This document shows positions 10,149 to 63,013 of a stretch of DNA of 64,000 bases, in pieces. Location: positions 16,463-80,462 of the forward strand of contig CAMVRE010000001.1 in assembly GCA_947169825.1 (NCBI GenBank), read 5' to 3'. Under the pieces are notes generated by a model. It did not search any database and had not been told where the DNA came from. It saw only the letters and a list, made by a program, of their open reading frames with translations. Positions within the stretch are counted from its first letter, which is position 1. Each line of letters begins with the position of its first letter. This DNA is from an uncultured Verrucomicrobiota bacterium. Lineage in GTDB: Bacteria; Verrucomicrobiota; Kiritimatiellia; RFP12; UBA3636. The translations under genes were made by a program, and so were the position numbers.

Positions 10149-10185
10149 TTTCCTTTCGGCTGCGGTTGTGGTATCATCCCGACCC

Positions 10186-12039: not shown

Positions 12040-12111
12040 AGCGGTTCTATATCGGACTTGGCGACAGAATTCGTTTGATGGCGAAAGGGGGGTGTGATAG
12101 TATTTATCCCC

Positions 12112-14851: not shown

Positions 14852-15142
14852 ATGCACAAACTCCTAGAACACCTCAAAGCGCATCTTTCGACGGCCGATC
14901 CGTGGATTCTCGTCTGGGACAATCGCGAGACGTTTCCGCGGAAGGTCGGGGACCGTATCCGCATCTGTAATCTGGCGACGGGCGCGTCGCTGTTCTTCGG
15001 CATCCCCGTTAGGACTTCGACCTGGGTCGACTACCGCGGCGAGGTCGTTCTCGAAACCCGTGTCGAGCGGGCCGAACTACCGGAACTGCTCGCGCGCCTC
15101 GAGGCGCGACTCCGACATTCGCCGGGCCGCCGCGTTTCATGA
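14852..15142 (+). CDS. Small conserved protein (96 aa); partner gene, paralog of 9861-10148
   Basis: See 9861-10148. The 3' flanking sequence tgatttcctttcggc is also duplicated. Confidence 0.65.
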   Translation: MHKLLEHLKAHLSTADPWILVWDNRETFPRKVGDRIRICNLATGASLFFGIPVRTSTWVDYRGEVVLETRVERAELPELLARLEARLRHSPGRRVS

Positions 15143-15179
15143 TTTCCTTTCGGCCGTCCTTCTGGTAGAATTCATCTCC

Positions 15180-18100
15180 ATGCAAGCCACTTCCACCGCA
15201 CGGTCTCCTCTGGTTCCCGTCAACGGATACGATTTTGCCCGATCGGTTCTCGACCAGGAACCGGATCGTGGCGTCGAGATACTTCTTCAGGCGGCAGGCG
15301 AAAACGAATCGGACTGGCTCGAAAAGAAAGCCGCGGTCTACCGGTCGGAAAGCAAGGACGAACGCTTCCGGAAAGCGTTGGAAAACTGCCCCCCCGAACA
15401 GAGGAAACGCAGGAAAGATCTCCTGAATCTCGAATTGCTCGCTGAAATCGCCAAGGCCATCGTCGCCATCCACAACTCCCGAGGTGGCGTTTTGTTCGTC
15501 GGCATCGACGACCAAACCAATGAACCCGTTTCCTTCGAAAACAACGACGGCGGAGAAATCTGGAGGACGAACGGAAAGGGCGACTATGCCCTCAAGGCGG
15601 TTTGGGGCCGGCTTGCCCGGGAGAACGGAGAGTTTCGTTTCGACCACGAGACATTGATCGTTCCGGTGGAAGCCGTCGGCGTGGTTCCAAAATGGTGTCG
15701 CTACAAGAACGCGGATGTCCTCGCCCTGCTCATCCCCCCGCTCGCACCCGAAAAGAATCCGCTTGAAGTCACGCACGTCGAAAACAATTCTCCGTGGAGA
15801 TCCATTCCGAAGAGAGCACCAGGAGATGTCGGTCAAGTCAAGAAGGAAATGCGAAACGATGCGTGGATCGGTTCCGCCGCACAATTGGCCGATTTCCACC
15901 ACGCCCGCCAAGAACGTTTTCTAAATCAAACCGATCTTGCTTCCAAACTCAAGATACTTGGTCTTTCCGTTCCCAGCTCCTTTGTTTCCCAAATTCCGAA
16001 GCCCCGGCAGGAAATCACCTCGACCGTCGACCGTCCGCGCGCAGCCAACTTCGTCGGACGCGAAAAGGAACTCGAAGAGTTGCACGAACTGCTCGCGGAC
16101 GGACGAATCCCCGTCGTGACCGGTCCAGGTGGGACGGGCAAGTCCGAGTTGGTCCTCCAGTACGCCGCACGGAACAAGGCCGACTACCCCGGAGGTTTGT
16201 TCCAGATTGACATGGAAGACGTCACCGATTGGAATCAGACCTTCCTATCAATGCTGGAGAAGCCCGGCGTTCGGGATGTTCTCGGACTTCCGGTGAACAA
16301 CGAAGCCGAGATAGAATGTGAAGCCGAAAAGGAACCAAGTGTCAATAGTGCGGAATTGGCAGCCGACGGAACTGGCATGCCATGCGACAATTGCTTGAGA
16401 GAGAGCATCGCCGGAGACAAGAAATCCGTTCCAGCGGCCTTGTCCGCCCGGGTCGGCAGGGCAGGTCCCATTTTGATGATCCTTGACAACGTCGATCCTC
16501 CAGCCTGCAAAACGCTTTTCAAGGAAACCGTCCTCTCCAAACTGGGTCTTCCGTCCGACGTGAAAATCGTCGCCACGGCACGGGCGTCAGATCTTACCTT
16601 TCCGGCCAGCGGCGTCTGCAAGGAATTCCGACTTTCCGACTTGTTGCCGGATGTAGCCGTCCGGTTTTTGCTGGCAAATCACCCGGAGGCTTCCGAAGAC
16701 GAACGGAAGGCGGCGGAAAACATCGCCCGGATGCTTGATTATCGCATCCTCTATCTGAAGGCCGTTCCCTCGCTGTTGGAGGATGACGATTCCGATTTTG
16801 CCGGGTCGTGGAGGGCACTCGAAGCGGGCCTGCGCGACAATCTCGCGGATGTCGTCGCCGCGGGAATGGAAGACGACAGGGGCCGGACGCCGTCCGCCCT
16901 TTGGCAACTGACGCAAAAGGCTTTTGCCGCCAATCGTCCAAAAGGAGACAGGTGGATTCTCCTGGCGCGGATCGCCTCGTTCTTTTCTCCTGACCTCGGC
17001 ATCCGGAAAGCCGCGCTTTCCGCATTGTGGAAAAGCATCTCGGCGCCAGATGGCGATCTGGACATCGCCTTTGATCAGGCGATCAACAAACTTCTCAAGC
17101 ATGGTATCCTCGAGGACCGAGACGGCGAATACTATATGCATCGTCTCACATGCGCGGCCATTCGAGCCGCTTCAAGAGAGGAAGCGCCGAACATCGAGGA
17201 ATCTGTCGGTTTGTCATTGGCGGGAACTGGTCGCTCGGAGAGTCGGGACTGGGTATCGCTCTCCGGCAGTATTCCGGCCCTGCGCCATGTCCCGGAGGCT
17301 CTGCTCGACGGAAAGACGTGCGTTGACATCCTGTGCGGCAACCGTCAATTCGCCGACCTTTGCCCGTGGACAAAACTCGACTATTCTGATTGGAGGAAAC
17401 TTCTTGCCTTTCATCCACAGTTTATCGATCAATTGCAACAATCCGCTGATAATGGCAGCGCTGGTGCACAAATCGCTCTTGGGATTTGTTACTATTACGG
17501 TCGCGGCGTGAACCAGAATTACGAAGAAGCCGTAAAATGGTTCCGCAAGGCTGCCGAGCAGGAAAACGCTGCTGCGTATTCGAATCTCGGCGTATGCTAC
17601 GAAAAGGGCCGCGGCGTGGAACGGAACGCCGAAGAGGCCGCGAAATGGTACCGCAAAGCCGCCAATCAGGAAAACGCTACTGCGCAGACCAATCTCGGCA
17701 ATTGCTACTACAACGGTTGCGGCGTGGAACAGAGTTCTGAGGAAGCCGTGAAGTGGTACCTCAAGGCCGCCGAGAAGGGAAACGCTGATGCGCAGTTCAA
17801 TCTCGGCGTATGCTATGGCAATGGCCACGGCGTGAAGCAGAACGCCGAGGAAGCTGTGAGGTGGTTCCGCCAGGCCGCCAATCAGGAAAACGCTACTGCG
17901 CAGTTCAATCTCGGTTGCTGCTACTACCACGGTCGTGGTGTGGAACAGAACTACGAAGAAGCCGTGAGGTGGTGGCGCAGGGCCGCCGATCAAGGAAAGG
18001 GTGCAGCGCAATTTAATCTTGGCGTGTGCTATGGCAAGGGCCACGGCGTGGATCGGAGCGCCGAGGAAGCCGTGAAGTGGTACCGTAAGGCTGCCGAGCA

Positions 18101-19067
18101 GGAAGACGCCGCTGCGCAGGCTAGGCTCGGCTTGTGCTACGAGGAGGGCGAAGGCGTGGAACGGAACGCCGAGGAAGCCGTAAAATGGTACCGCAAGGCC
18201 GCCGAGCAGGGCAACGCTTCTGCACAGACAAAACTCGGTTATTGCAAGAATGACGGCCGTGGCATAGAACGAAGCGTCGAAGATGCGGTGAAGTGGTGGC
18301 AAAAAGCGGCAGAACGGGGGTACGCCCCGGCTCAATGGGAACTCGGTAGTTGCTTTGCCCTCGGAAAAGGTGTCGCGCGGAATGAGGAAGAGGCCGTAAA
18401 CTGGTGGCGTAAGGCGGCGGACCAAGGAAACCCCTGGAGACAAATCCGTTTGGGCCGGGTTCTTTTGTTCGGGAACGGCGTTGAAAAGAACGAGGCGGAG
18501 GCGTTCCGTTGGTTCCAGCGCGCGGCGGAACAAAAAGACGATTATGCGTTCGCCTGGCTCGGCTACTGTTTCGCGTCAGGAACCGGGACGCCCAAGGATA
18601 CACAAAAATCTGAATCGCTCTTTTTGAAGATCAGTCAACCCGCTCTTGGATTCAACGAGATTGCATGGTGTTTGTTCAAAGCAGGACGGTTTTCGGATGC
18701 CTTGCCGTTCGCGGAAAGGGCAGTTGCCGCGTTGCGGACAATCGAAGACTTCCCGATGCAGAAACGAATTATAATCCTCGATACACTTGCTGCCATTTTT
18801 CACCATTTGAACCGGGAAGAGGAAACGAAAGACGTTTGCTCCGAAATCCTGTCTCTGTTCCCAGAAAACGACGATTCAAAACACCACGAGGAAGCTCTCG
18901 TCCGGCTCGGGCGGGCCTGTCAACGCCTTGGCGACAAATCTGGCGCGGTCGATGCGTTCCAGAAGGCACTAACCATTGTGGAACGGCATGACGGCAAGCA
19001 CGCCGAATACGGAGAGTCCGCAGATTCCTTGCGCGCGTTGCTGGCCGAATTGTCGGAACGCGGTTGA
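15180..19067 (+). CDS. AlbA_2 N-terminal domain fused to STAND (NB-ARC-like) NTPase and Sel1/TPR repeat array; Avs-like architecture
   Basis: NGYDFARSV...ESDWLEKKAA...AIHNSRGGVLFVGIDD. Walker A PVVTGPGGTGKSELV and Walker B ILMILDNVD. At least 12 Sel1-type repeats (AQxxLGxCYxxGxGVxxNxEEAVKWYRKAAEQ). C-terminal TPR-like segment. Confidence 0.85.
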   Translation: MQATSTARSPLVPVNGYDFARSVLDQEPDRGVEILLQAAGENESDWLEKKAAVYRSESKDERFRKALENCPPEQRKRRKDLLNLELLAEIAKAIVAIHNSRGGVLFVGIDDQTNEPVSFENNDGGEIWRTNGKGDYALKAVWGRLARENGEFRFDHETLIVPVEAVGVVPKWCRYKNADVLALLIPPLAPEKNPLEVTHVENNSPWRSIPKRAPGDVGQVKKEMRNDAWIGSAAQLADFHHARQERFLNQTDLASKLKILGLSVPSSFVSQIPKPRQEITSTVDRPRAANFVGREKELEELHELLADGRIPVVTGPGGTGKSELVLQYAARNKADYPGGLFQIDMEDVTDWNQTFLSMLEKPGVRDVLGLPVNNEAEIECEAEKEPSVNSAELAADGTGMPCDNCLRESIAGDKKSVPAALSARVGRAGPILMILDNVDPPACKTLFKETVLSKLGLPSDVKIVATARASDLTFPASGVCKEFRLSDLLPDVAVRFLLANHPEASEDERKAAENIARMLDYRILYLKAVPSLLEDDDSDFAGSWRALEAGLRDNLADVVAAGMEDDRGRTPSALWQLTQKAFAANRPKGDRWILLARIASFFSPDLGIRKAALSALWKSISAPDGDLDIAFDQAINKLLKHGILEDRDGEYYMHRLTCAAIRAASREEAPNIEESVGLSLAGTGRSESRDWVSLSGSIPALRHVPEALLDGKTCVDILCGNRQFADLCPWTKLDYSDWRKLLAFHPQFIDQLQQSADNGSAGAQIALGICYYYGRGVNQNYEEAVKWFRKAAEQENAAAYSNLGVCYEKGRGVERNAEEAAKWYRKAANQENATAQTNLGNCYYNGCGVEQSSEEAVKWYLKAAEKGNADAQFNLGVCYGNGHGVKQNAEEAVRWFRQAANQENATAQFNLGCCYYHGRGVEQNYEEAVRWWRRAADQGKGAAQFNLGVCYGKGHGVDRSAEEAVKWYRKAAEQEDAAAQARLGLCYEEGEGVERNAEEAVKWYRKAAEQGNASAQTKLGYCKNDGRGIERSVEDAVKWWQKAAERGYAPAQWELGSCFALGKGVARNEEEAVNWWRKAADQGNPWRQIRLGRVLLFGNGVEKNEAEAFRWFQRAAEQKDDYAFAWLGYCFASGTGTPKDTQKSESLFLKISQPALGFNEIAWCLFKAGRFSDALPFAERAVAALRTIEDFPMQKRIIILDTLAAIFHHLNREEETKDVCSEILSLFPENDDSKHHEEALVRLGRACQRLGDKSGAVDAFQKALTIVERHDGKHAEYGESADSLRALLAELSERG

Positions 19068-26562: not shown

Positions 26563-26620
26563 GACAGAAGGACGCATCAAACCAACCCGAATTCGAACAA
26601 CAACAAGAAGGAACAAAACC

Positions 26621-27883: not shown

Positions 27884-27967
27884 TGGAAAACCCGGAGGCC
27901 CAGAACTTAATCTAGGTAAAGGAACGAACAACCAAGCTTCAACAAACCCACAAACCCCGAACAGACC

Positions 27968-32341: not shown

Positions 32342-32402
32342 TTCCCCGCATTCCGAAACAAACCTAAAACAAACCAAAAACAACAAACACCACAAACACG
32401 CC

Positions 32403-36926: not shown

Positions 36927-39830
36927 CTACTTCCCGACGGGAGCGACGGCGATTGCAGAGAGGACGCCGGGGCGGGAGGCGTCGTAGGAGACGCGGAAGG
37001 AGACGGGCGAGGTGCCGTCGTAGGCGAAGTCGGCGGTCGCGCCGTCGGCAGAGATCGAGAGACCCTCGACGCCGTCGGCGCCCGCGAGGCGAAACGGCGA
37101 GGGCGCGGCGGGGGAGGGCGAGGGGGAGCCGAGCGGGTCGGAGAGGATGGCGGCGGCGATGTCGGGCTTCTCCTCCAGGATCGTCGCGCGGTAGCGTCCG
37201 GCGGGGAGCGCAAGCGGGAGCCACGGGCCCTCGACGGCGGTGCACGGCGGGTGCGGCCCGGGCGCGAAGGCGAGATCGTCCGGGGCGGGGACGAAGCCGC
37301 CGGTCTTCTCGTCGGGGATGCGCGCAAGCGTTGTCGAACCGAACTCGTGGTAGAGGTCGACGGCGGGAAGGCGGAGCGCGCCGTCGGAGTCCGGAGCGGG
37401 CAGGCCACCGTGCGCGGGATCGCGCGCGTAGGCGACGTAGGAGATGCGCGCGTCGCCCGGGGTGGAGAGGTGCGTCCAGAGGTTGGAGGAGGGGTCGAGG
37501 GCGGGGAGGAAGGCGAGGCGCCAGTCCGGGGCCGGGGCCCCGGGCGCGGAACCGGCTTCGCGGCTTGCGCGGAAGAGGTTGGTGGAGGAGTGGAGCGAGC
37601 CGTCGGCGTCCGTGAAGGAGGAGACGAGGACGAGGTCCTTGCCGGCCTCGGCGCGGACGAGCCAGCCATAGCCCTCGCGGTGGATTTCGGCGAAGGAGCG
37701 GACCTTCGTGGCGGCGTTCGCCTGGGGCGGGCGCACGCCCCAGTGGCGGGTGGGCGGCTCAAGCATCGAATGCTGAATGCTGAATGCTGAATGCTGAATG
37801 GAGGAAGCTTGTTCTGTCGTCGTGCATTCTGCATTCTGCATTCTGCATTCAGCATTGCCTTCGCGGTCGCAGACCGCGAAGGCCCAGGCGCCGTCGGCGC
37901 GGGCGAGGAGACGGAGCCTCGGGTTGGCGAGGTGGCGGCGGAGGGTGGCGCCGAAGGGGAAGAGGGAGACCTTGGCGGGGAAGGCGTCCTCGTGGAGGAT
38001 CACGTGCGTGACGCCCGTCTTGCGGAGGGCGGCGTATTGGTCGTCGGTGAAGTCGCCCTCGGTCATCGTCTCGAAGCGACGGAAGACGCGCTCGACGTAG
38101 GCGGGCTCCGTGACGGCGGCGTAGCCGTTGAGCATCCGCAGCCCGGCGCGCATGGCGTGGTATTCGTAGATCGAGCTGTAGGAGGAGTCGCCGGGCCAGA
38201 TCGGCAGGACGAGCGCGCGCGGCACGAGCCCGCGCGCCTCGGCGTCGGAAACGGCGGCCGCGTAGGCGGCGTTGGGGCCGGGAAGGAGGCATACGCCCGC
38301 GCGCATGCCGCGCGAGGCGGAGAGGAGGACGGCGAGCACCAGCGCCGCGGCGGGAAGCGCGCGGAGGAGGGGACGGCGGCGCGGCGCCCGGCGGAGCGCC
38401 TCCGCCGCGGAGGCCGAGGCGCGTTCGCGCTGGCCGGAGGCGAGGCGCGAGAGCGCGAGCGGCGCGGCGGCGCGGCGCAGGAGCGGCGCGAGGGAGGCGA
38501 GGGAAGCCCACGCGAGCGCGAGGAACGCCGCGTAGAGCGTCGGGAGGAGGCAGAGGACCTTGAGCGGCTGGCGCACCAGGCGGAAGGGCGGGACGAGCCG
38601 GCGGAGGGCGCGCAGGAGGAGGGCGTCCCCGGGGCCGTTCGTCCCGAGCGCGAGGAAGAAGGCGGCGACGATCGCCGCGCCGAGGAGGAGCCCGGCGAGC
38701 GCGGCGCGGAGCGCGGCGGTGTCGCGCGGGGCGGCGGACTCGGCGCGGGTCGAGAAGCGCGGGTCGAAGACGATCGCCGGCGAGCGGAACGGCGCGGTGC
38801 GGCGCCGGCGCAGGAGGCGCCAGGCCAGGACCAGGGCGGCCGCGAGCAGCGCGAGGCCGGCGAGCGAGAGCAGCGCCGCGATCGCCCAGCCCTGGTGGAG
38901 CTGCTCGGGCGAGTGGCTGAAGTAGGCCGGGTCGAAGAAGGCGTGCCAGTCGGGCGAATGGCGCGCGAGATCCTGCATCGAACGGCCGCCGGCGGCGTCG
39001 GTCGAGGCGTAGGCGCGCTTGGCGGCCCGGCCGAGCGCGGCGCAGACCGCGCCGCCGAGCAGGATCGGCGAGAGGGCGCGGACGAGCCGAAGGAAGCGGC
39101 GGCGCGAGGCGAAGGGGTTCGCGGGCGAGCGCAGGAGCGCGACGAGGCCCCAGAGCGGGAGGGCGAGCACGGCGAAGAGGAAGCAGTGCAGGTCGGCCGC
39201 GTAGCAGCAGAGCACGAGCGCGCCCGCGAGGACGCCGCCGCGGAGGCGCCGGTCGCGCACGGCGATGTCGACGCCGAGCGCGACGCCCGGGACGAGCCCC
39301 ATGCCGAATCCGGTGGGGGAGCCGCCGGCCAGGACGACCCAGCGGTAGGGGACGCACGTCGCGAGCGCGGCGCAGGCGAGCGCCGCGCCGGGGCCGGCGC
39401 CGCAGCGGCGGGCGAGGGCGTGGCAGAACGCGAGCCCGAGGAGGATCGAGAGCCACTGGGCGAGGTTCCAGGCGAAGGCGTCGGACGCCCCGGCGGCGCG
39501 CGCGAGGGAGTAAGGGAGGGCGAACGGAAAGTAGCACAGGTCCGGGCGCGGCGGGCGGGCCTCGTCGGACGTATTGAACTCCCAGAGGTTGCGGAACCAG
39601 GGGAGGCGGCCGCGGAGGTAGGAGTCGAAGAGGTCGAAATGGTAGAGCAGCTGCAGGTGGTCCCCCTGCACGAGCGTGCGCGCGGGGGCGTCCCCGGCGT
39701 AGCAGGTGTAGGCGATGCCGCGGGCGACGTGCGCGGGGAGCGGCCGGAGGAACGCGGCCCAGAGCGAGAGCGCGAGCGCGGCGAGCGCCAGGGCGGCGCG
39801 GAGGCGGGGATGTCGGCGCAGGGGCGTCAT
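36927..39830 (-). CDS. Large polytopic membrane protein with C-terminal soluble domain; carries an in-frame palindromic (GAATGCT)n element
   Basis: At least 12 hydrophobic helices in the first ~640 aa. ATG at 39830 (MTPLRRHP). The ORF has no stop across the 37764-37859 hairpin, which encodes ...[30 protein letters not shown]... The C-terminal ~270 aa look like genuine coding sequence. Confidence 0.5.
37764..37859. repeat. Imperfect palindrome: (GAATGCT)x4.7, 22-nt spacer, (TGCATTC)x4.7
   Basis: Read directly: gaatgctgaatgctgaatgctgaatgctgaatgg...tgcattctgcattctgcattctgcattcagcatt. Confidence 0.9.
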
Positions 39831-39875
39831 GGCGGCGGATGATACCACGGCGTCCCCGCGGCGGGCAAGGGGCGC

Positions 39876-39904: not shown

Positions 39905-40018
39905 CCGCGCCCTCAGCACATCAAGAGCCGGGGTTCTTCCGCCCCGCCCCAACCGAGCGATCGCGCCACGGTGGATCCGGACAAGCCGGGATGCGCCCTG
40001 AACCGAAAGGGAAAAACC

Positions 40019-41203
40019 ATGCAACGCTACGTATTCACCTCCGAGGCCGTCTCGGAGGGCCACCCTGACAAGGTCGCCGACCAGATCAGCGACGCCATCC
40101 TCGACGCCGCGCTGGCGGTCGACCCCGCCGCGCACGTCGCGGCCGAGACGTTCGTCGGGCCGCGCTTCTGCGCGAACCTCGGCGAGGTCTCGGAGCACAT
40201 TCTGCCGAGGCTCGATCCCGAGACGATCGCGCGCGGCGTCGTCCGCGACATCGGCTACGACCGCCCCGAGGAGGGCTTCGACTGGAGGACCTTCGACTAC
40301 CAGAACCGCCTTGGCGCGCAGTCGCCCGACATCGCGCAGGGCGTCGACCGCGGCTCCGCCGACGAGCAGGGCGCGGGCGACCAGGGGATGATGTTCGGCT
40401 ACGCCGTGCGCGAGACGCCGGAGCTCATGCCCGCGCCGATCGCCTGGGCGCACCGCCTGATGCGCCGCTTCACGGACGAGCGCAGGTCCGGCCGCATCCC
40501 GTGGCTGCGCCCCGACGCGAAGAGCCAGGTGAGCGTCGTCTACGAGGACGGCCGCCCGGTCCGGATCGACGCGATCGTGCTCTCGCACCAGACGACGGAC
40601 GAACCGGACATCGACCGCGACATCCGCCCGGCGATCGAGGCCGTGGTGCGCGACGAGCTCGCCGGCACCGGGATGCTGGTTCCCGCCACGCGGTTCCACG
40701 TCAACCCGACCGGGCGCTTCGTGACGGGCGGGCCCGCCGGCGACTCCGGCCTCACCGGGCGCAAGATCGTCGTGGACACCTACGGCGGCGCGTGCCCGCA
40801 CGGCGGCGGCGCCTTCTCGGGCAAGGACCCGAGCAAGGTCGACCGCTCCGCGGCCTACTACGCGCGCTACGCGGCGAAGAACCTCGTCGCCGCCGGCGCG
40901 GCGGATCGCTGCGAGATCCAGGTGAGCTACGCGATCGGCGTGGCGGCGCCGACGAGCGTTCGCGTGCAGTTCTTCGGCACGGAGAAGGGCGGCGCCACGG
41001 AGGCGAAGGCCGTCGCGATGCTCGAGAGCGGCGAGGTCTTCGACTTCCGTCCCGGCCGTCTCGTCGCCGCGCTCGGGCTCCTCGCGCCGAGCGGCTGGAC
41101 CTACCGCGACACCGCGAGCGGCGGGCACTTCGGCCGCGCGGCGTTCCCGTGGGAGCGCCTCGACCGGGTCGACGCCGTCCGCGCCGCCCTCGGCCTGCGC
41201 TAG
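40019..41203 (+). CDS. metK: S-adenosylmethionine synthetase
   Basis: [73 protein letters not shown]. Confidence 0.92.
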
Positions 41204-41229
41204 CCGCGGCACGAGTCGCGAAACGCCCC

Positions 41230-41258
41230 TTGCGCGCGCGGCGGACTTCTGCTACAAT
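41230..41258 (+). promoter_or_regulatory. Sigma70-like promoter candidate (TTGCGC-17-TACAAT) upstream of TPR protein gene
   Basis: ttgcgc gcgcggcggacttctgc tacaat. aaggag RBS before ATG 41331. Confidence 0.45.
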
Positions 41259-41330
41259 CGCCCCGTTTTCGGGTTCCCCGCGGCGTGCCGCCGGGGGCCC
41301 CGGCGCAACAGCCCCTTTCAAGGAGTCCGC

Positions 41331-44300: not shown

Positions 44301-44756
44301 GAGCCGCTCGCCCAGGTCTACCAGCGCAGCATCCAGACGCTGATGCAGATGAAGACCTACTCCGACGGCTCGTCGGTCTGGCCCGACGTCCAGTACGAGT
44401 GCGGCCACTACCTCAAGCTCTTCAAGGACATCGCCGACCCGAAGGAGGTCCTCAAGGTTCGCAGCGCCCTCAACGAGGCCACGCGCGAGATCAACGCCGC
44501 CGGCGAGGAAATGCCGCCCTCCGCCCTGATCGAGCTCATGGGCGACGCGCCCGACGTCGAGGCCATCCTTGCCACGCTCCCGGAGGACGCCTACCTCCCC
44601 AAGGAGGAGTCCGAGGAGGCCCCCGCGGAGGAGTCCTCCGAAGAGGTCGCCGACCCCGCCGAAGCGCCGGCCGAAGCGACCGAGGCCGCCGAGGCGGCCC
44701 CCGCCGAAGAGGCGGCGGAGGAAGCCCCCGCGGACGAGCCCGCCGCCGAGGAGTGA
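41331..44756 (+). CDS. Large secreted TPR-like repeat protein with acidic C-terminal tail
   Basis: Signal peptide MPTTFRSSLRPLLAAAALAALVPVGARA. Many TPR-like helical pairs. C-terminal EEAPAEESSEEVADPAEAPAEATEAAEAAPAEEAAEEAPADEPAAEE. Confidence 0.7.
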   Translation: MPTTFRSSLRPLLAAAALAALVPVGARAQAAVSDQDAKILSQEMKYVDALNRAGFPDYADLVLRDIQAKYPAAKAKLKVKMLEQVLQLGKFDEAQAIIDKEPNQDAPETWAMKLTMADYLFARGRYDEAFATYNALFKKYGSAPPKEIVEFYVNSYYKFAQMLKFQKKDKEAADALEKLLAVAGLPADMKRPVLFDHAQTLVKVASEAGKGGAGGYITRANKSIEALLWTQDVWFGRSVALMAHIKVIEGKVDEAQKLVEDYMPMLVQLEEALIEAGKEDGEDYLGLSPIPEVRYLMGVMYQEEADKLVTQSKSEAGKKKTDLEDKAGELYGLALRELVNVYIKYPSYAWAIEAMSRHEQINKALDELGFEVADSTTPAQRAQVAKKQFESAHMFYHQNRFEEAIKQFETVLKSFPEVVPESIKALVVLAQAAVEYGESQEEEEAQQYWQLYSGAVAGYIADRFARSTKEGMTLAGDQLRSLQSFYATHNLPELSQQARSDFFRLYPEHPAAANTVMQEAERLYKDGSYEEAMPLYRLLMENYTKNAVSWPAQRRLADCYGKTGRPEEELNIRSNYLARVEHKRNPGNDLITAQYSYLKALRTLRANALREATLAYDEARRGEAKPAEEGKDPVEEAVVALKAANDGVRGMLNEYTKLIRRLTDKEQRAKFEVSAKQKDLNDQILQSALFDHAFCLSSLNQPEAQLPKYKQLAIKDYERILELFPKAQGVPIVLLQLGTLYSTIRTDDEAEAEANTKKASEYFDRLSADYPESEQAKNALYLQAKALMELGYRPEAIKKYGEMISTPGGKYTPLQLAKAAEELVAAKAWETAEKGFQAALAGAKPDDAALRNMIEMGLMQILVAQKKYTEAVPRLKKFLEDTPRFHRTADVLELLRTACVEAAVAEPDKKKRSLLFKDANDASAKLKAYRRGDRAALELQLQHGDIMEKQYKAAVDFKADDAEDILRSSANYYQRIITTFGANPKNAEILEPLAQVYQRSIQTLMQMKTYSDGSSVWPDVQYECGHYLKLFKDIADPKEVLKVRSALNEATREINAAGEEMPPSALIELMGDAPDVEAILATLPEDAYLPKEESEEAPAEESSEEVADPAEAPAEATEAAEAAPAEEAAEEAPADEPAAEE

Positions 44757-44789
44757 ATGCCGAATGCTGAATGCTGAATGCTGAATTCC
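44755..44789. repeat. (GAATGCY)x5 heptamer array overlapping stop codon of 41331-44756
   Basis: gaatgccgaatgctgaatgctgaatgctgaattcc. Confidence 0.9.
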
Positions 44790-44866
44790 TACGCACAAAA
44801 CTCCAACCGCCCATCTCCAATCTCGCTCCCGTAACCCTTCAACCTTTCAACCCAAACTCCCCACCC

Positions 44867-45676
44867 ATGAAAAAGACACCACTCGTCCTCCTCGCCGCGC
44901 TGCTTCTCGGCTGCGCCACGTCCGTCCGGGCCGCCGACGTCAAGGCCAAGGTCCAGCTCTCCAACGGCGAGACGCACCAGGGCACGATCCGCTGGCTTCC
45001 CGCCGACAAGAAGTACATGTTCGGCATGAAGCAGCCGAACGGCACGGTCGCCGAACGCGCCCTTCCGGCCGACGCCGTCGTCAGGCTCCAGGTCGAGACC
45101 CCGCAGGAGTGGGGCAGGCTCCGCCAGCAGGCGCAGCAGTCGCCCGACGCCGCGATCTCCGGCCTCCAGGCCCTCGCCGAGCGCTACCGCCGCCTCCAGT
45201 GGGACGGCGAGGCCGGCGCCCTGATCGCCCAGATCTACCTCAAGAAGAACAACGCCAAGGGTGCCGTCGACGCCTGCCGCAAGATCGTCCAGGGCAACGA
45301 CCGCGCCGCGTGGGACTCCGCGATGGCCCCGTGGTACTGGAAGGCGCTCATCGAGTCCAACCAGACCGGCTCCCTGCCCGGTCTGCTGGAGAAGGGCGCC
45401 ACCTCCGCCGACCGCAACGTCGCCGCCCAGGCCTGCCTCAAGCGCGGCGACATGCTCGACTCCCAGAACGACGCCAAGAACGCCCTGAAGGACGGCTACC
45501 TGCGCGTCGTGCTCCTCTTCCAGGACGTCGCCGAGGCCCGCGCCGAGGCCATCTACAAGGCCGCTCAGATGTTCGACAAGCTCCACCAGTCCGCCTACGC
45601 CGAGAAGATGCGCAAGCTCCTCCTCGACCAGTATCGCAACTCCCCCTGGACCAAGCGGCTCTCCTCCGGCGACTAG
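44867..45676 (+). CDS. Lipoprotein, hypothetical
   Basis: MKKTPLVLLAALLLGCATS (lipobox LLGC). Its leader is shared with the exbB leader (cccttcaacctttcaacc). Confidence 0.65.
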   Translation: MKKTPLVLLAALLLGCATSVRAADVKAKVQLSNGETHQGTIRWLPADKKYMFGMKQPNGTVAERALPADAVVRLQVETPQEWGRLRQQAQQSPDAAISGLQALAERYRRLQWDGEAGALIAQIYLKKNNAKGAVDACRKIVQGNDRAAWDSAMAPWYWKALIESNQTGSLPGLLEKGATSADRNVAAQACLKRGDMLDSQNDAKNALKDGYLRVVLLFQDVAEARAEAIYKAAQMFDKLHQSAYAEKMRKLLLDQYRNSPWTKRLSSGD

Positions 45677-45678
45677 GT

Positions 45679-45759
45679 CAATGCTGAATGCTGAATGCCG
45701 AATGCCGAATGACAGACCGACTTTAAACTTTAAACTTTAAACCCTTCAACCTTTCAACC
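45679..45759. repeat. Composite repeat: (GAATGCY)x5 + (ACTTTAA)x3 + cccttcaacctttcaacc leader box
   Basis: caatgctgaatgctgaatgccgaatgccgaatgac...actttaaactttaaactttaa acccttcaacctttcaacc. The leader box is also present at 44834-44852. Confidence 0.85.
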
Positions 45760-45776
45760 AAACACCCCCCAAAACC

Positions 45777-46541
45777 ATGAAAAAGTCCCTCCTCGCCACC
45801 CTCGCCGCCGCCGCCCTGCTGGTCGCGGCCGCTCCGGTCACCACCTACGCCCAGGACGATTTCGCGCCCGCGCCGCAGGCCCAGCAGGCGCCCGCGCAGC
45901 CCAAGCACTCCACGTTCTACGACGTGCTCTTCGGCTCGGGCTGGCTCGGCACGCTCCTCTGGCTCGCGCTGTTCGGGTGCCTCGGCTACTACATCTACCT
46001 GGCGATCGACTGCGGCATCCTCGTGCGCCCCTCCAAGATCATGCCGGACGCGCTCGTCAACAACGTCAAGGAGGCCATGAAGGAGGGCGACGTCGTGAAG
46101 GCGCTGCAGTTCTGCGAGAACGAGCCCACCCCGATGTCCAACATCCTCTCCGCCGGCTTCATCCACGTGGAGGAGGGCTTCGACGTCATCTCCTCCGCCG
46201 TCGACGCCGCGGCCGACCTCGAGATCGAGCGCATCATGCAGCACCTGGCGTGGATCTCCGTCTGCGCCAACATCGCCCCGCAGCTCGGCCTGCTCGGAAC
46301 GGTCCAAGGCATGATCATGGCGTTCGGCAACTTGGGCACCGGCTCGCCGAACGTCGGCCTCCTCGCGACGAACATCTCGCAGGCGCTCTACACGACGGCC
46401 GGCGGTCTGACGACCTCCATCCCCGCCGTGTGCACCTACTACTTCTACCGCAACCGCGCCAACCGCATCATCCTCCAGATGACCGCCACCACGATGGAGC
46501 TCATCAAGGACCTGCGCAACGTCGAGGTCGTCGCCGAATAA
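45777..46541 (+). CDS. exbB: MotA/TolQ/ExbB proton-channel family protein
   Basis: Three TM helices. ...APQLGLLGTVQGMIMAFGNLG...ALYTTAGGLTTSIPAV. Confidence 0.85.
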   Translation: MKKSLLATLAAAALLVAAAPVTTYAQDDFAPAPQAQQAPAQPKHSTFYDVLFGSGWLGTLLWLALFGCLGYYIYLAIDCGILVRPSKIMPDALVNNVKEAMKEGDVVKALQFCENEPTPMSNILSAGFIHVEEGFDVISSAVDAAADLEIERIMQHLAWISVCANIAPQLGLLGTVQGMIMAFGNLGTGSPNVGLLATNISQALYTTAGGLTTSIPAVCTYYFYRNRANRIILQMTATTMELIKDLRNVEVVAE

Positions 46542-46574: not shown

Positions 46575-47078
46575 ATGAGCAAGAAACGAGACAACGAAGG
46601 GTGCGACCTGAACATGACGCCGATGATCGACGTCGTGTTCCAGCTCATCATCTTCTTCATCGTCACGATCAACATCGCCGACACGAAGGACGAGAACATC
46701 CAGCTCGAGTTCGGCTACCACGGCCAGGAGGTGAAGACCTCCGAGCAGTCCGACACGTCGGCCGTGACGATCGACGTCGCGATGCCCCGCGCCGGGTTCC
46801 CGGAGGGACGCATCTCCGTCGGCAACATCACGATCCACAAGGAGAACCTGCGGACCATCGTCCGCTCCGGGCGCGCCCGGTTCGGCGACGGCTTCCAGGT
46901 GTGGGTCCGCGGCGACTGGCGCGCCACGCACGGCCTCGTGCGCAAGGTCATGGACCTCTGCGCCGAGGAGGGCATCGGGCGCGTCACCTTCATCGCGATC
47001 AGCGAGGCGGTCACGGAGCCGTCGCGCCGGCACGAGAAGGAGTACAAGGAGCTCTCCACCATCCGCCCGAGGAACTAG
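46575..47078 (+). CDS. exbD: ExbD/TolR biopolymer transport protein
   Basis: NMTPMIDVVFQLIIFFIVT. Confidence 0.85.
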   Translation: MSKKRDNEGCDLNMTPMIDVVFQLIIFFIVTINIADTKDENIQLEFGYHGQEVKTSEQSDTSAVTIDVAMPRAGFPEGRISVGNITIHKENLRTIVRSGRARFGDGFQVWVRGDWRATHGLVRKVMDLCAEEGIGRVTFIAISEAVTEPSRRHEKEYKELSTIRPRN

Positions 47079-47081
47079 CAA

Positions 47082-47552
47082 ATGGCCGACCAGAAGAAGA
47101 AGAAGAAGAAGAAGAACAAGGGCGACGAGGCGACGCTGGAGATGACGCCGATGATCGACGTCGTCTTCCAGCTGCTGATCTTCTTCATCGTCACCCTGAA
47201 CCAGCCGGACATCCTCTCGCAGCTGGAGGCGCTCCGCCCGGCCCCGAACCCGTCGCCGACGGAGGTGGTGGACCCGCCCACGTCGATCACGATCAAGGGC
47301 TTCGCGAAGCACCCGGGCCTCGGCGCCTACATGTTCGGCAACGACCAGAACCGCCGCACCGTGACGCTCGAGCAGCTCCGCGGGTTCGTCGGGCAGATGG
47401 CGAAGGCGAACAAGAAGCAGACGGTCATCGTGAACTGCACGGACGACGCGCCGCACGGCTGCCTCATCCGCGTGCTGGACATGCTGGCCGAGGTCGGCCT
47501 CCATTCCGTGTCCATCTTCTCGCTGGACAACGGGACGGAACGGCCCTGGTAG
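47082..47552 (+). CDS. exbD: ExbD/TolR biopolymer transport protein (second copy) with poly-Lys N-terminus
   Basis: MADQKKKKKKKNKGDEATLEMTPMIDVVFQLLIFFIVT. Confidence 0.85.
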   Translation: MADQKKKKKKKNKGDEATLEMTPMIDVVFQLLIFFIVTLNQPDILSQLEALRPAPNPSPTEVVDPPTSITIKGFAKHPGLGAYMFGNDQNRRTVTLEQLRGFVGQMAKANKKQTVIVNCTDDAPHGCLIRVLDMLAEVGLHSVSIFSLDNGTERPW

Positions 47553-58331: not shown

Positions 58332-58332
58332 G

Positions 58333-58490
58333 GTCGTGATGGTCGTGATGGTCGCGATGGTCTCGATAGTCGCGATGGTCTCGATAGTCGCGATGGTCTC
58401 GATAGTCGCGATGGTCTCGATAGTCGTGATGGTCGGACCATCCAGACCATCGGACCATCCAGACCATCAGACCATCAGACCAGATTCTCC
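58333..58490. repeat. Tandem repeats: (GATGGTCGTGAT)x2 + (GATGGTCTCGATAGTCGC)x4 + (GGACCATCNA)x4
   Basis: Read directly. Occupies the whole spacer between the DUF721-like start and the purM stop. Confidence 0.9.
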
Positions 58491-60055: not shown

Positions 60056-60231
60056 GGGTGGGTATTCTAGACGATTGTCGCGGGCGTTTCAAGTGGCGCG
60101 CTGCGGCCCGCCGCGGCGCGCACGGTCCTTTGACGAATCTCCCGCTCCGTTTATTCACGGGCGCGCACGGCCGCCACCCGTTTTCCGGTCGAGTCCGCCG
60201 CCCCGGCGGCCACGCGGCTTGCGAAACCGCC

Positions 60232-61653: not shown

Positions 61654-61655
61654 AA

Positions 61656-61793
61656 GACCGTGTGACCGTGTAACCGTGTGACCGTGCGACCGTGTGACCG
61701 TGTAACCGTGTGACCGTGTAACCGTGTGACCGTGCGACCGTGTGACCGTGCGACCGTGCGACCGTGTGACCGTGCGACCGTGTGACCGTGCGA
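61656..61793. repeat. (GACCGTGY)x17 octamer tandem array forming the entire tadE-like/tadG-like intergenic spacer
   Basis: gaccgtgtgaccgtgtaaccgtgtgaccgtgcgaccgtg... abuts the tadE-like stop (61794) and ends 2 nt before the tadG-like ATG (61653). Confidence 0.9.
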
Positions 61794-62938: not shown

Positions 62939-63013
62939 TGGCTCCGGTGGCTGGATTCGAACCAGCGACCAAGGGATTAACAGTCCCCTGCGCTACCGCT
63001 ACGCTACACCGGA
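62939..63013 (-). tRNA. tRNA-Asn (anticodon GTT), CCA encoded
   Basis: Reverse complement: TCCGGTG TA GCGT AGCGGTA GCGC A GGGGA CTGTTAA TCCCT TGGTC GCTGG TTCGAAT CCAGC CACCGGA G CCA. Cloverleaf with 7-bp acceptor stem, TPsiC loop TTCGAAT and anticodon loop C-U-GUU-A-A. Confidence 0.88.

Follow-up and report, generated by a model that had tools for sequence, protein, structure and literature searches.

The window, a stretch of DNA of 64,000 nucleotides, comes from a Kiritimatiellae bacterium, probably of rumen or gut origin. It contains an operon encoding a TPR protein, a lipoprotein, ExbB and two ExbD proteins (Table 1), and this gene order was kept in the related loci L125-L129 and L136-L138. 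The product of the lipoprotein gene had no Pfam match. All related loci had a gene of 253-271 aa at this position, likewise without Pfam matches, and that of L126 aligned to the window gene at the DNA level. A candidate promoter, TTGCGC-17-TACAAT, was read directly from 41204-41330, before the first gene. No Shine-Dalgarno site was found before the lipoprotein gene or before exbB. A GGGAGG Shine-Dalgarno site precedes the first exbD, whose spacer is short and structured; the second exbD began 3 nt past the stop of the first, with GAGGAA in the upstream coding sequence before that stop.

Table 1. Genes, spacers and repeat arrays in the window
Feature	Position	Strand	Description
Third heptamer site	37768-37800 + 37823-37856 (37768-37856)	-	Inverted pair; GAATGCT x4.7 and TGCATTC x4.9 on + strand
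TPR protein gene, 1141 aa	41331-44756	+	First gene of operon; Pfam TPR matches, GC3 frame
TPR-lipoprotein spacer (IG1)	44757-44866	+	Begins at TGA stop of TPR gene; TGAATGCC GAATGCT x3 GAATTCC at 5' side; 3' end ...AACCCTTCAACCTTTCAACCCAAACTCCCCACCC-ATG
Heptamer array 1	44755-44789	+	GAATGCC, GAATGCT x3, GAATTCC
C-rich leader 1	44833-44862	+	8-nt periodicity: AACCCTTC AACCTTTC AACCCAAA CTCCCC
Lipoprotein gene, 269 aa	44867-45676	+	MKKTPLVLLAALLLGC with lipobox-like end
Lipoprotein-exbB spacer (IG2)	45677-45776	+	TAG GT CAATGCT GAATGCT GAATGCC GAATGCC GAATGAC ... (ACTTTAA)3.3 ... AACCCTTCAACCTTTCAACCAAACACCCCCCAAAACC-ATG
Heptamer array 2	45679-45713	+	CAATGCT, GAATGCT, GAATGCC x2, GAATGAC
Sigma-70-like match	45709-45736	+	ATGACA, 16 nt, TAAACT; 9/12
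(ACTTTAA)3.3 array in IG2	45720-45742	+	(CCTTTCAA)3 in its place in another allele
C-rich leader 2	45740-45769	+	8-nt periodicity: AACCCTTC AACCTTTC AACCAAAC ACCCCC
exbB, 254 aa	45777-46541	+	Pfam MotA_ExbB, E = 3.4e-25
Two exbD genes	46575-47078 and 47082-47552 (together 46575-47552)	+	
Operon spacer of inverted 8-nt and 9/18-nt arrays	58332-58474	-	GATGGTCY and GACCATCGCGACTATCGA, stop to start
Operon spacer (TCRCACGG) x17	61654-61793	-	TAG stop to 4 nt before ATG

Both (GAATGCY)4-5 arrays began at the upstream stop codon or 3 nt past it, and the TGA stop of the TPR gene (44754-44756) was part of the first unit of array 1. The arrays adjoined the stop codon and not the start, lying 77 nt (IG1) and 63 nt (IG2) from the ATG. 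Tandem Repeats Finder reported period-7 arrays at 44754-44786 (4.7 copies), 45680-45711 (4.6 copies) and 45720-45742 (3.3 copies), the last being the (ACTTTAA)x3 that the earlier note had correctly placed in the second module. A two-unit heptamer probe matched the window 11 times where 0.09 matches were expected, a number reached in none of 100 shuffles, and the 17-mer CCTTCAACCTTTCAACC had 3 matches against 0.04 expected. Downstream of both arrays a 20-nt stretch, AACCCTTCAACCTTTCAACC, was identical and formed the first 20 nt of leaders 1 and 2. A repeat search also paired the IG1 and IG2 modules, at a spacing of 896-910 nt. The duplicated module of array and C-rich stretch reported by the earlier note before the lipoprotein gene and exbB is present as described. 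The 12-15 nt given between it and the ATG needs correction: from the end of the identical 20-mer to the ATG there are 14 nt in IG1 and 17 nt in IG2, and from the end of the extended motif 4 and 7 nt.

Eleven contigs whose DNA is about 93-100% identical to that of the window were compared; six of them encode the same ExbB protein. Copy number was polymorphic in whole units: IG2 had 4, 4, 4, 4, 4, 5, 5, 6, 6, 6 and 10 heptamer units, and IG1 had 4-6 across strains. Inside one haplotype IG2 was 95, 109 or 137 nt long, lengths which differ by exact multiples of 7. These whole-unit differences point to replication slippage as the mechanism. The octamer part was variable too, with (ACTTTAA)3 replaced by (CCTTTCAA)3 in another allele, and IG1 in other strains had a (GAACCTTY)n version instead of the 3' part found in the window lineage. 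As this 3' part of window-lineage IG1 matches IG2 over 20 nt and other strains differ, copying between the spacers is suggested, and IG1 and IG2 have probably exchanged sequence by recombination. The proposal that expression signals had been duplicated through repeats fits these results, both spacers being built of slippage-prone repeats with the 20-nt identity. Being assembly-sensitive and strain-variable, the spacers are usable as strain markers; calls of stop or frame are less reliable where they extend into an array of this kind.

Variation of this kind could be that of a contingency locus, in which slippage in the 5' region alters lipoprotein and ExbB levels, in phase or in degree, and selection keeps the repeats. 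The whole-unit differences among near-identical strains are consistent with this, the downstream genes encode envelope and uptake components, and phase variation has a precedent in the heptamers upstream of the HMW adhesin genes of Haemophilus influenzae. The 7-bp repeats of hmw1A and hmw2A reportedly lie between promoter and gene, and expression is said to have been measured to shift with copy number. Like those repeats, the heptamer tract described here is in a 5' region and varies in copy number between isolates; unlike them, it has similar repeats in unrelated spacers (58332-58474 and 61654-61793) and in a coding linker. The tract is, however, 60-80 nt from the start codon, beyond any demonstrated promoter, and is missing in most relatives. 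It also lies outside any reading frame and 5' of the sole candidate -35, and unit number affects neither the frame nor the -35/-10 spacing. A contingency locus is considered unlikely. The natural series of 0, 4, 5, 6 and 10 units before one gene is a compact test set for an expression effect.

The earlier note had described the module at two genes. Within the window the full C-rich motif is found at the lipoprotein gene and exbB only; a third site of the heptamer had been overlooked. The inverted arrays of this site form a long predicted hairpin and are in frame and stop-free in a protein linker of a 973-aa ORF (36927-39848). A separate downstream gene at this site was considered and rejected; its 279-aa product, starting from 37766, had no database record. 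The homologues are single proteins of 840-955 aa covering both halves, which places the third site inside one gene; from the protein alignment, the rows of database proteins were used. Two other operon spacers in the window also consisted of 8-9-nt tandem arrays (Table 1); that at 58332-58474 had a predicted fold of -87.4 kcal/mol (z = -10.6).

In a genome scan, GAATGCY arrays turned up at over 118 loci spread across many phyla, tied to no particular gene class. Perfect period-7 arrays flanking 118 of the loci numbered 196, against 4-8 each for periods 4, 5, 6, 8 and 9, and this excess agrees with the published excess of heptanucleotides (PMC4679880, PMC4692102). In a crude assignment of orientation for 107 arrays, the two neighbouring genes shared the strand of the array in 32 cases, were both on the opposite strand in 38 and were mixed in 37; with no orientation bias, the heptamer was rejected as a strand-specific RNA signal. 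It was antisense in another Kiritimatiellae-like operon spacer, and on a 40-kb viral contig it adjoined start codons in both orientations. In viral contigs, 25 stretches of (GAATGCY)3 were spread over 17 contigs; the number of stretches was 3, 14, 15 and 14 for four composition-matched control heptamers and 107 for (TAACTGA)3. GAATGCY in viral contigs is no commoner than most of the composition-matched controls, and the heptamer was rejected as a special cross-phylum element, its viral counts not being exceptional against them. The sequence GAATGC is also the one recognised by restriction enzymes of the BsmI type, a possible further lead.

One unit at three sites in 64 kb and a patchy phylogenetic distribution could indicate a miniature mobile element that placed an array at each site in a transposition-like manner, and in a Lentisphaerae genome (GAATGCT)n and (ATAATTC)n did lie within a composite element whose flanks are fixed. 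In the window, the copies lacked terminal inverted repeats and target duplications, their boundaries differed among the three sites, and no inverted repeats flanked the IG1 and IG2 arrays. The array ends decay gradually (GAATGAC, GAATTCC) and copy number shifts by single units, which makes this origin highly improbable. It is also very doubtful that GA(A/G)TG(C/A)Y arrays are actively maintained as a landing pad which is free of structure, works in either orientation and takes the place of the Shine-Dalgarno site in Kiritimatiellae and their phages as well as in other phyla. Such a role would account for the stop-to-start extent of the arrays and for the shared unit before exbB in two diverged species. 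If it were true, a dedicated factor would recognise or spread the arrays, and the TGA and ATG within them would make stop-and-restart cassettes between cistrons.

The corresponding spacers of six related species carried no heptamer and were 42-75 nt long; the species compared had 68-89% ExbB identity. The G fraction was 0.06-0.17 in those relatives' spacers that were measured, and in all relatives the leader was poor in G, rich in C and devoid of a Shine-Dalgarno site. Most of the relatives' two spacers contained a YTTCAAC(C)-like motif, 15-45 nt before the ATG, over a range of 68-100% ExbB identity, and the CCTTCAACC core was seen again in orthologous spacers. The period of the motif was 8 nt in the window and 10 nt in L126; it was degenerate in L125, L127, L129 and L137. 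The heptamer was present in one related species, RUG13889, whose exbB leader contained (GAATGCY)6, an octamer array and CCCTTCAACC. Two species that differ by about 18% in DNA thus share the heptamer before exbB while closer relatives lack it, a patchiness that would not be expected from pure neutral slippage.

As the first of two readings, the earlier note had suggested a shared regulatory element, either a promoter or a riboregulator target. For the heptamer, the comparisons gave no support to this: it is missing from the spacers of the six related species, its units drift from 4 to 10, it is antisense in other operon spacers and inside an ORF at the third site, and it has no Rfam match. The search with Rfam covariance models gave 0 matches at E <= 1 across 44600-45900, and a known RNA family was rejected. 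Likeness of the heptamer to a Fur box or another operator was also rejected as unconvincing.

The C-rich YTTCAAC(C)-like motif is the only candidate functional element, and a regulatory role is conceivable for that motif alone. Its repeats could be mRNA sites bound by a protein or small RNA that jointly controls translation of the lipoprotein and of ExbB; candidate binders are ribosomal protein S1 and factors of the Csp or Csr type. The motif is kept at 15-45 nt before the ATG across species though its period differs, the full motif is in the window at these two genes only, and the same idea was put forward by MacGregor for TAACTGA repeats (PMC4679880). No sequence complementary to the motif was found within the window, however, no Rfam family matched, the motif is degenerate in the four loci named above, its likeness between species is explicable by G depletion alone, and the heptamer is left unexplained. 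Such a binding site is considered unlikely. Conserved as it is, the G-poor leader motif is the better target for work on initiation without a Shine-Dalgarno site in Kiritimatiellae.

Predicted folding was weak in IG1 (z = -0.1) and IG2 (z = -0.6), the 10-unit allele had a predicted -8.9 kcal/mol over 143 nt, and those orthologous leaders that were folded had 0 to -9 kcal/mol. A fold of -18.5 kcal/mol over 71 nt was predicted for the exbD spacer that has the Shine-Dalgarno site. IG1 and IG2 are predicted to be almost without secondary structure. No intrinsic terminator (a GC-rich stem and U run) was found on the + strand in either spacer, and a terminator function was rejected. Unstructured spacers of C-rich, G-poor composition (C 0.41 and G 0.11 in IG1; C 0.31 and G 0.12 in IG2) could be intercistronic Rho loading (rut) sites, at which Rho would terminate when downstream translation is poor and so set the upstream/downstream ratio. 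Composition is the sole basis for this reading, leaders without a Shine-Dalgarno site are expected to have the same composition, and the spacers of relatives are just 42-75 nt. Rho loading is considered very unlikely.

The operons of exbB are frequently under iron regulation, and the repeats could hold an internal exbB promoter or a tandem operator array, for instance for an iron regulator. Between 41100 and 47700 one sigma-70-like match was found against 0.4 expected, and it sits where two arrays join (Table 1). Its -10 hexamer had no counterpart in the L002/L005 allele, and relatives lacked the region altogether; the loss of this single match in another allele also counts against a shared promoter. 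A better candidate promoter precedes the first gene, the heptamer is tied to no gene class, and it is not known to resemble the Fur box; an internal promoter or operator is very unlikely. The AACUUUA inside (ACTTTAA)n is presumably the core of the T7 epsilon translational enhancer. This reading was dropped because another allele has CCTTTCAA in place of the array.

Long simple-sequence repeats (LSSR) with 5-11-nt units, and the over-representation of heptanucleotides in many prokaryotes, were described by Mrazek, Guo and Shah (2007), according to the accounts in PMC4679880 and PMC4692102. The arrays described here resemble this class in having head-to-tail 7-nt units, mostly intergenic and longer than chance, with a length that varies among close relatives and period 7 dominant. 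The period-7 arrays of 4.6-4.7 copies had 92-96% matches, in line with the head-to-tail copies of the class, and two of the three heptamer sites in the window were intergenic, where LSSR whose unit is not a multiple of 3 mostly lie. They differ in being stacked with a second, 8-nt repeat, the two together filling entire operon spacers. A string search of the literature found no report of the GAATGCY unit or of a Kiritimatiellae host.

The TAACTGA direct repeats of marine Beggiatoaceae, Cyanobacteria and Bacteroidetes (MacGregor 2015, PMC4679880) are likewise intergenic heptamers in 2-6 or more copies that are predicted to be unstructured. They have stops in all three forward frames, as GAATGCT gives TGA in each over three units; in both cases the associated genes are without Shine-Dalgarno sites and occasional ORF copies are in the stop-free orientation. 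Unlike TAACTGA, the unit here is GAATGCY, orientation is not uniform, and the window heptamer adjoins the upstream stop and not the start, its arrays being 77 and 63 nt away and not within a few nt of it, although it adjoins starts in the viral contig. Further heptamers are the GGGAATC repeats of Xanthomonas and GGGGA(C/T)T of Nostoc (Rehm et al. 2015, PMC4692102) and the STRR heptamers of Calothrix (Mazel 1990, as cited in PMC4692102). These too are intergenic and flanked by the same genes in related species with widely varying array length and sequence, and some form inverted pairs with potential stem-loops, comparable to the third site. They are G-rich and quadruplex-capable, whereas GAATGCY has no G runs and no quadruplex is expected.

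Our preferred reading, to which we give a probability of about 0.6, is that both modules are hypermutable simple-sequence repeats filling nearly all of the operon's two internal spacers. The GAATGCY arrays are assigned to the intergenic heptanucleotide simple-sequence repeats already described as LSSR, a little-studied class that is thereby extended to a further phylum. The duplication reported in the earlier note stands, and its engineered look is that of simple-sequence repeats, accounted for by ordinary repeat dynamics and not by an engineered switch.

Two layers can be told apart on this preferred reading, a conserved leader motif and a fast-drifting heptamer tract. The older would be the G-poor, C/U/A-rich leader with a YTTCAAC(C)-like motif in most relatives, ending in CC-ATG. 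This ending is the usual start context of the clade, in which C was at -1 in 56 of 76 starts and at -2 in 49 of 76. In the window lineage the leader would have been amplified to two or three 8-nt units, and the younger (GAATGCY)n tract would have grown between the stop codon and the leader. Both layers would shift in whole units by replication slippage, with IG1 and IG2 probably swapping sequence by recombination. On the mRNA, the predicted outcome is a stretch of 100-110 nt almost without secondary structure, and such an unstructured leader would let translation of the lipoprotein gene and exbB begin in the absence of a Shine-Dalgarno site. The heptamer tract itself is probably a near-neutral spacer, at most length-tuning, and not a sequence-specific signal.

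Against this reading, the YTTCAAC(C)-like motif is conserved, a hint that a specific sequence may be recognised and that lack of structure is not the whole story.

The spacers lying 5′ of the lipoprotein gene (IG1) and of exbB (IG2) proved to be as the earlier note had described them. Each has an array of the heptamer GAATGCY followed by a C-rich, G-poor leader that ends at the ATG; this was evident on direct reading and from repeat statistics that were far from random. Tandem Repeats Finder reported period-7 and period-8 arrays in the spacers, and within the window a two-unit heptamer probe had 11 matches (0.09 expected) and a leader 17-mer had three (0.04 expected). A repeat search also paired the heptamer, leader and first codons of the lipoprotein gene with those of exbB, 896-910 nt apart. 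As these counts greatly exceed expectation and the repeats pair, the observation is real and non-random.

Coordinates, content and predicted folding of the features discussed (window positions)
Feature	Position	Strand	Content	Folding
IG1	44757-44866 (110 nt)		Starts within TGA stop of 1141-aa TPR gene; TGAATGCC, then GAATGCT x3, then GAATTCC; 3′ end ...GTAACCCTTCAACCTTTCAACCCAAACTCCCCACCC-ATG; lipoprotein gene starts at 44867	z = -0.1
IG2	45677-45776 (100 nt)		TAG-GT-CAATGCT GAATGCT GAATGCC GAATGCC GAATGAC-AGACCG-(ACTTTAA)3-ACCCTTCAACCTTTCAACCAAACACCCCCCAAAACC-ATG; exbB starts at 45777	z = -0.6
ORF from ATG in IG1 array	44771-45676		301 aa, in frame with lipoprotein gene (added region 44771-44866)	
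MotA_ExbB (Pfam)	45777-46541			
Sigma-70-like match	45709-45736		Weak	
Third site	37768-37800, 37823-37856		GAATGCT x4.7 facing TGCATTC x4.9	-47.9 kcal/mol, z = -5.9
ORF through third site	36927-39848	minus	973 aa	
Inverted-array spacer	58332-58474	minus	Stop to start: (GATGGTCY)~5.6 facing (GACCATCGCGACTATCGA)~6	58335-58484: -87.4 kcal/mol, z = -10.6
Direct octamer spacer	61654-61793	minus	(TCRCACGG) x17, TAG stop to 4 nt before next ATG	
Near-start -10 elements	60056-60231, 12040-12111, 10149-10185			
Secreted-protein gene leaders	32342-32402, 26563-26620, 27884-27967		G fraction 0.05 in the first	
Tandem repeats in ORF 15060-19067	17486-18238		108 and 216 nt (6.8 and 3.4 copies, 73-77% matches)	
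SAM-I/IV riboswitch match	39913-40026		45.4 bits, above gathering score; upstream of S-adenosylmethionine synthetase gene	
tRNA gene (Rfam)	62942-63013	minus	71 bits	

The first gene of the operon encodes TPR repeats, and the two genes following exbB encode ExbD (Pfam). The 269-aa lipoprotein has an N-terminus closed by a lipobox-like LLGC and had no Pfam family match. The five-gene order was identical in all related loci fetched, and every ExbB homologue with a source name was labelled Kiritimatiellae; contig and sample names alone (RUG, RGIG, STEW19, XIEF21) suggest a ruminant gut origin. The stop codon of the TPR gene overlaps an ATG (TGAATG), and the GAATGCT arrays contain overlapping six-codon mini-ORFs (MLNAEC-stop) in all three frames.

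Strains were compared using six contigs encoding an identical ExbB and five more that share the IG2 junction, namely the lipoprotein stop codon and the first two IG2 heptamer units; all 11 had 93-100% DNA identity to the window. IG2 was found to hold four heptamer units in L005, L131, L132, L134 and L135, five in L001 and the window, six in L002, L003 and L004, and 10 in L133; L006 is cut at the array. Within one haplotype the spacers were 95, 109 and 137 nt long and so differed by exact multiples of seven. IG1 held 4, 5, 5 and 6 units across strains. The second layer of IG2 occurred in two versions, (ACTTTAA)3 with CCCTTCAACCTTTCAACC versus ACTTTAA with (CCTTTCAA)2-3, and that of IG1 as the window version versus (GAACCTTY)4-5. 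The 3′ parts of IG1 and IG2 were identical over 20 nt in the window lineage but not in other strains, which points to a putative exchange of sequence between the two spacers.

Neither spacer, at 42-75 nt, contained the heptamer in six related species (L125, L126, L127/L128, L129/L130, L136-L138; ExbB identity 68-89%). These spacers were C-, U- and A-rich, with a G fraction of 0.06-0.17 in those measured (L136-L138). L126 carried CCCCTTCAAC three to four times in both spacers, L138 carried CCTTTCACCCTTTCAACG and TTTTTCAACC, and L136 carried CTCCTTCCAACCAACCC. Such YTTCAAC(C)-like motifs were present in most of the relatives' spacers, and YUUCAACC as a candidate binding element is a minor alternative. 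In RUG13889 (L074; approximately 82% DNA identity) the heptamer was present 5′ of exbB, in the order GC-rich hairpin, (GAATGCY)6, octamer array (GACCAYCN)4 and CCCTTCAACCAACCCC...ACC-ATG. As the leader is kept without the heptamer in six species, while RUG13889 has the heptamer, the C-rich leader forms the older of the two layers and is conserved; the heptamer, patchy in its distribution, was probably added recently. The exbB locus offers a natural series of 0, 4, 5, 6 and 10 units, and a contingency locus in which the heptamer tract tunes expression is given little weight.

No Shine-Dalgarno site was found in the lipoprotein and exbB leaders. The exbD1 spacer has a GGGAGG site, and exbD2 is preceded by AGGAGG in relatives versus GAGGAA in the window. 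Among 76 starts from the window and L125-L129, C was found at -1 in 56 and at -2 in 49, a strong CC-ATG context, so the ACC-ATG end of both modules is the usual start context in this clade. Genes with and without Shine-Dalgarno sites were intermixed inside single operons of this set. Elsewhere, TAGAAT- or TAGTAT-like -10 elements lay 7-9 nt before start codons in the window and in L125 (~530), L127 (~15340) and L129 (~4900), for example TTGAAA-17-TAGAAT-ACCCACCC-ATG, a short spacing suggestive of frequent leaderless or near-leaderless mRNAs in the clade. Three secreted-protein gene leaders were almost G-free, CA-rich and loosely periodic (AAACAAACC...).

IG1 and IG2 were predicted to fold no better than shuffled sequences. 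The 10-unit allele gave -8.9 kcal/mol over 143 nt, and values for orthologous leaders of 75-96 nt lay between 0 and -9 kcal/mol; the exbD spacer with a Shine-Dalgarno site gave -18.5 kcal/mol over 71 nt. By these predictions, what is conserved in both leaders is that they stay unfolded, and it is inverted arrays that form long hairpins. Neither a terminator, in either spacer, nor an Rfam family match, in the spacer region, was found; Rho loading at the spacers is a lesser alternative. An internal promoter within the spacer repeats is a similarly slight prospect: its one weak sigma-70-like match places the -10 element in the (ACTTTAA) array, which is absent from the other allele, and TTGCGC-17-TACAAT upstream of the first gene is more convincingly promoter-like.

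The most likely reading (about 0.6) is that both spacer layers are slippage products, the C-rich layer serving as a putative leader that lacks both structure and a Shine-Dalgarno site, and the heptamer as a near-neutral or tuning spacer. Heptanucleotide repeats are described as the most abundant of the longer simple repeats in many prokaryotes and are attributed to polymerase slippage (Mrazek 2007, as cited in PMC4679880 and PMC4692102). The TAACTGA repeats of Beggiatoaceae lie directly 5′ of start codons of genes without Shine-Dalgarno sites, are predicted to be unstructured, have stops in all frames and have S1, Csp or CsrA as proposed binders (MacGregor 2015, PMC4679880). The GGGAATC repeats of Xanthomonas lie between the same genes, differ in length and sequence by species and are in some cases inverted pairs (Rehm et al. 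2015, PMC4692102). GAATGCT or GAATGCC repeat strings were not found in the literature searched. The finding is genuine and well delimited, and it adds a new host to a known phenomenon.

A genome scan for (GAATGCY)3 revealed at least 118 stretches in many phyla, those listed including Lentisphaerae, Verrucomicrobia, Kiritimatiellae-like, Planctomycetes, Acidobacteria, Chloroflexi, Cyanobacteria, Bacteroidetes, Streptomyces and others. Among the matches listed, a crude comparison with flanking long ORFs found no orientation bias (both genes on the array strand in 32, both opposite in 38, mixed in 37), and in a Kiritimatiellae-like genome an antisense-oriented array fills an operon spacer. A census of perfect arrays of at least three copies in the 865 kb flanking the matches listed gave 196 of period 7, 71 of them non-GAATGCY with 49 unit types, and 4-8 for each of periods 4, 5, 6, 8 and 9. 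Viral sequences had 25 stretches of (GAATGCY)3, spread over 17 contigs, compared with 3, 14, 15 and 14 stretches for composition-matched controls and 107 for TAACTGA. One 40-kb viral contig of 63-65% GC (IMGVR_UViG_3300028840_003139; L141, L143, L154, L156, L159) had no fewer than 12 GAATGCT arrays; these occur in either orientation at 4-12 nt from start codons, and many are paired with (CCCTGAC)n arrays. Given the many unit types, phyla and orientations and the viral control counts, GAATGCY is an ordinary member of a large heptamer-repeat population and is probably not a specific signal. Mobility of the array is also a minor alternative, inverted or target repeats bounding the arrays not having been found. 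A composite repeated element was seen in L007, L024 and L028 (Lentisphaerae bacterium ADurb.Bin082), L091 and L110, in the order GGGGCGAGGGG, (GAATGCT)n, GAGGCGCATTTC, (ATAATTC)n, TTAGGGGCGAGGGG; it has fixed flanks, unlike the window copies.

A third heptamer site in the window, which the earlier note did not report, consists of inverted arrays that form an in-frame insert within the linker of a membrane protein of 973 aa. The GC3 frame was unchanged across the site (37768-37856) and the ORF continues through it; the protein exceeds the nearest homologue without the insert by approximately 30 aa, and each homologue (840-955 aa) is one protein that spans both halves. One database protein (P0122) also has the insert; some alleles are without it and have (TCGTCAC)4-5, encoding TRHSSLV repeats, at that linker. 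Read in the sense direction, the first arm is GAATGCA in place of GAATGCT and lacks the TGA that GAATGCT gives in every frame over three units; the repeats can therefore occupy a protein linker, but only as a stop-free form. Two further spacers between co-directional genes, likewise absent from the earlier note, consist wholly of 8-9-nt arrays, the inverted one taking the TGA stop codon into its first repeat unit. In L022 (3230-3255), a GAATGCT array is succeeded by an octamer related to TCRCACGG, (GACCGTTA)3. The ORF with 108- and 216-nt repeats probably encodes a repeat-domain protein.
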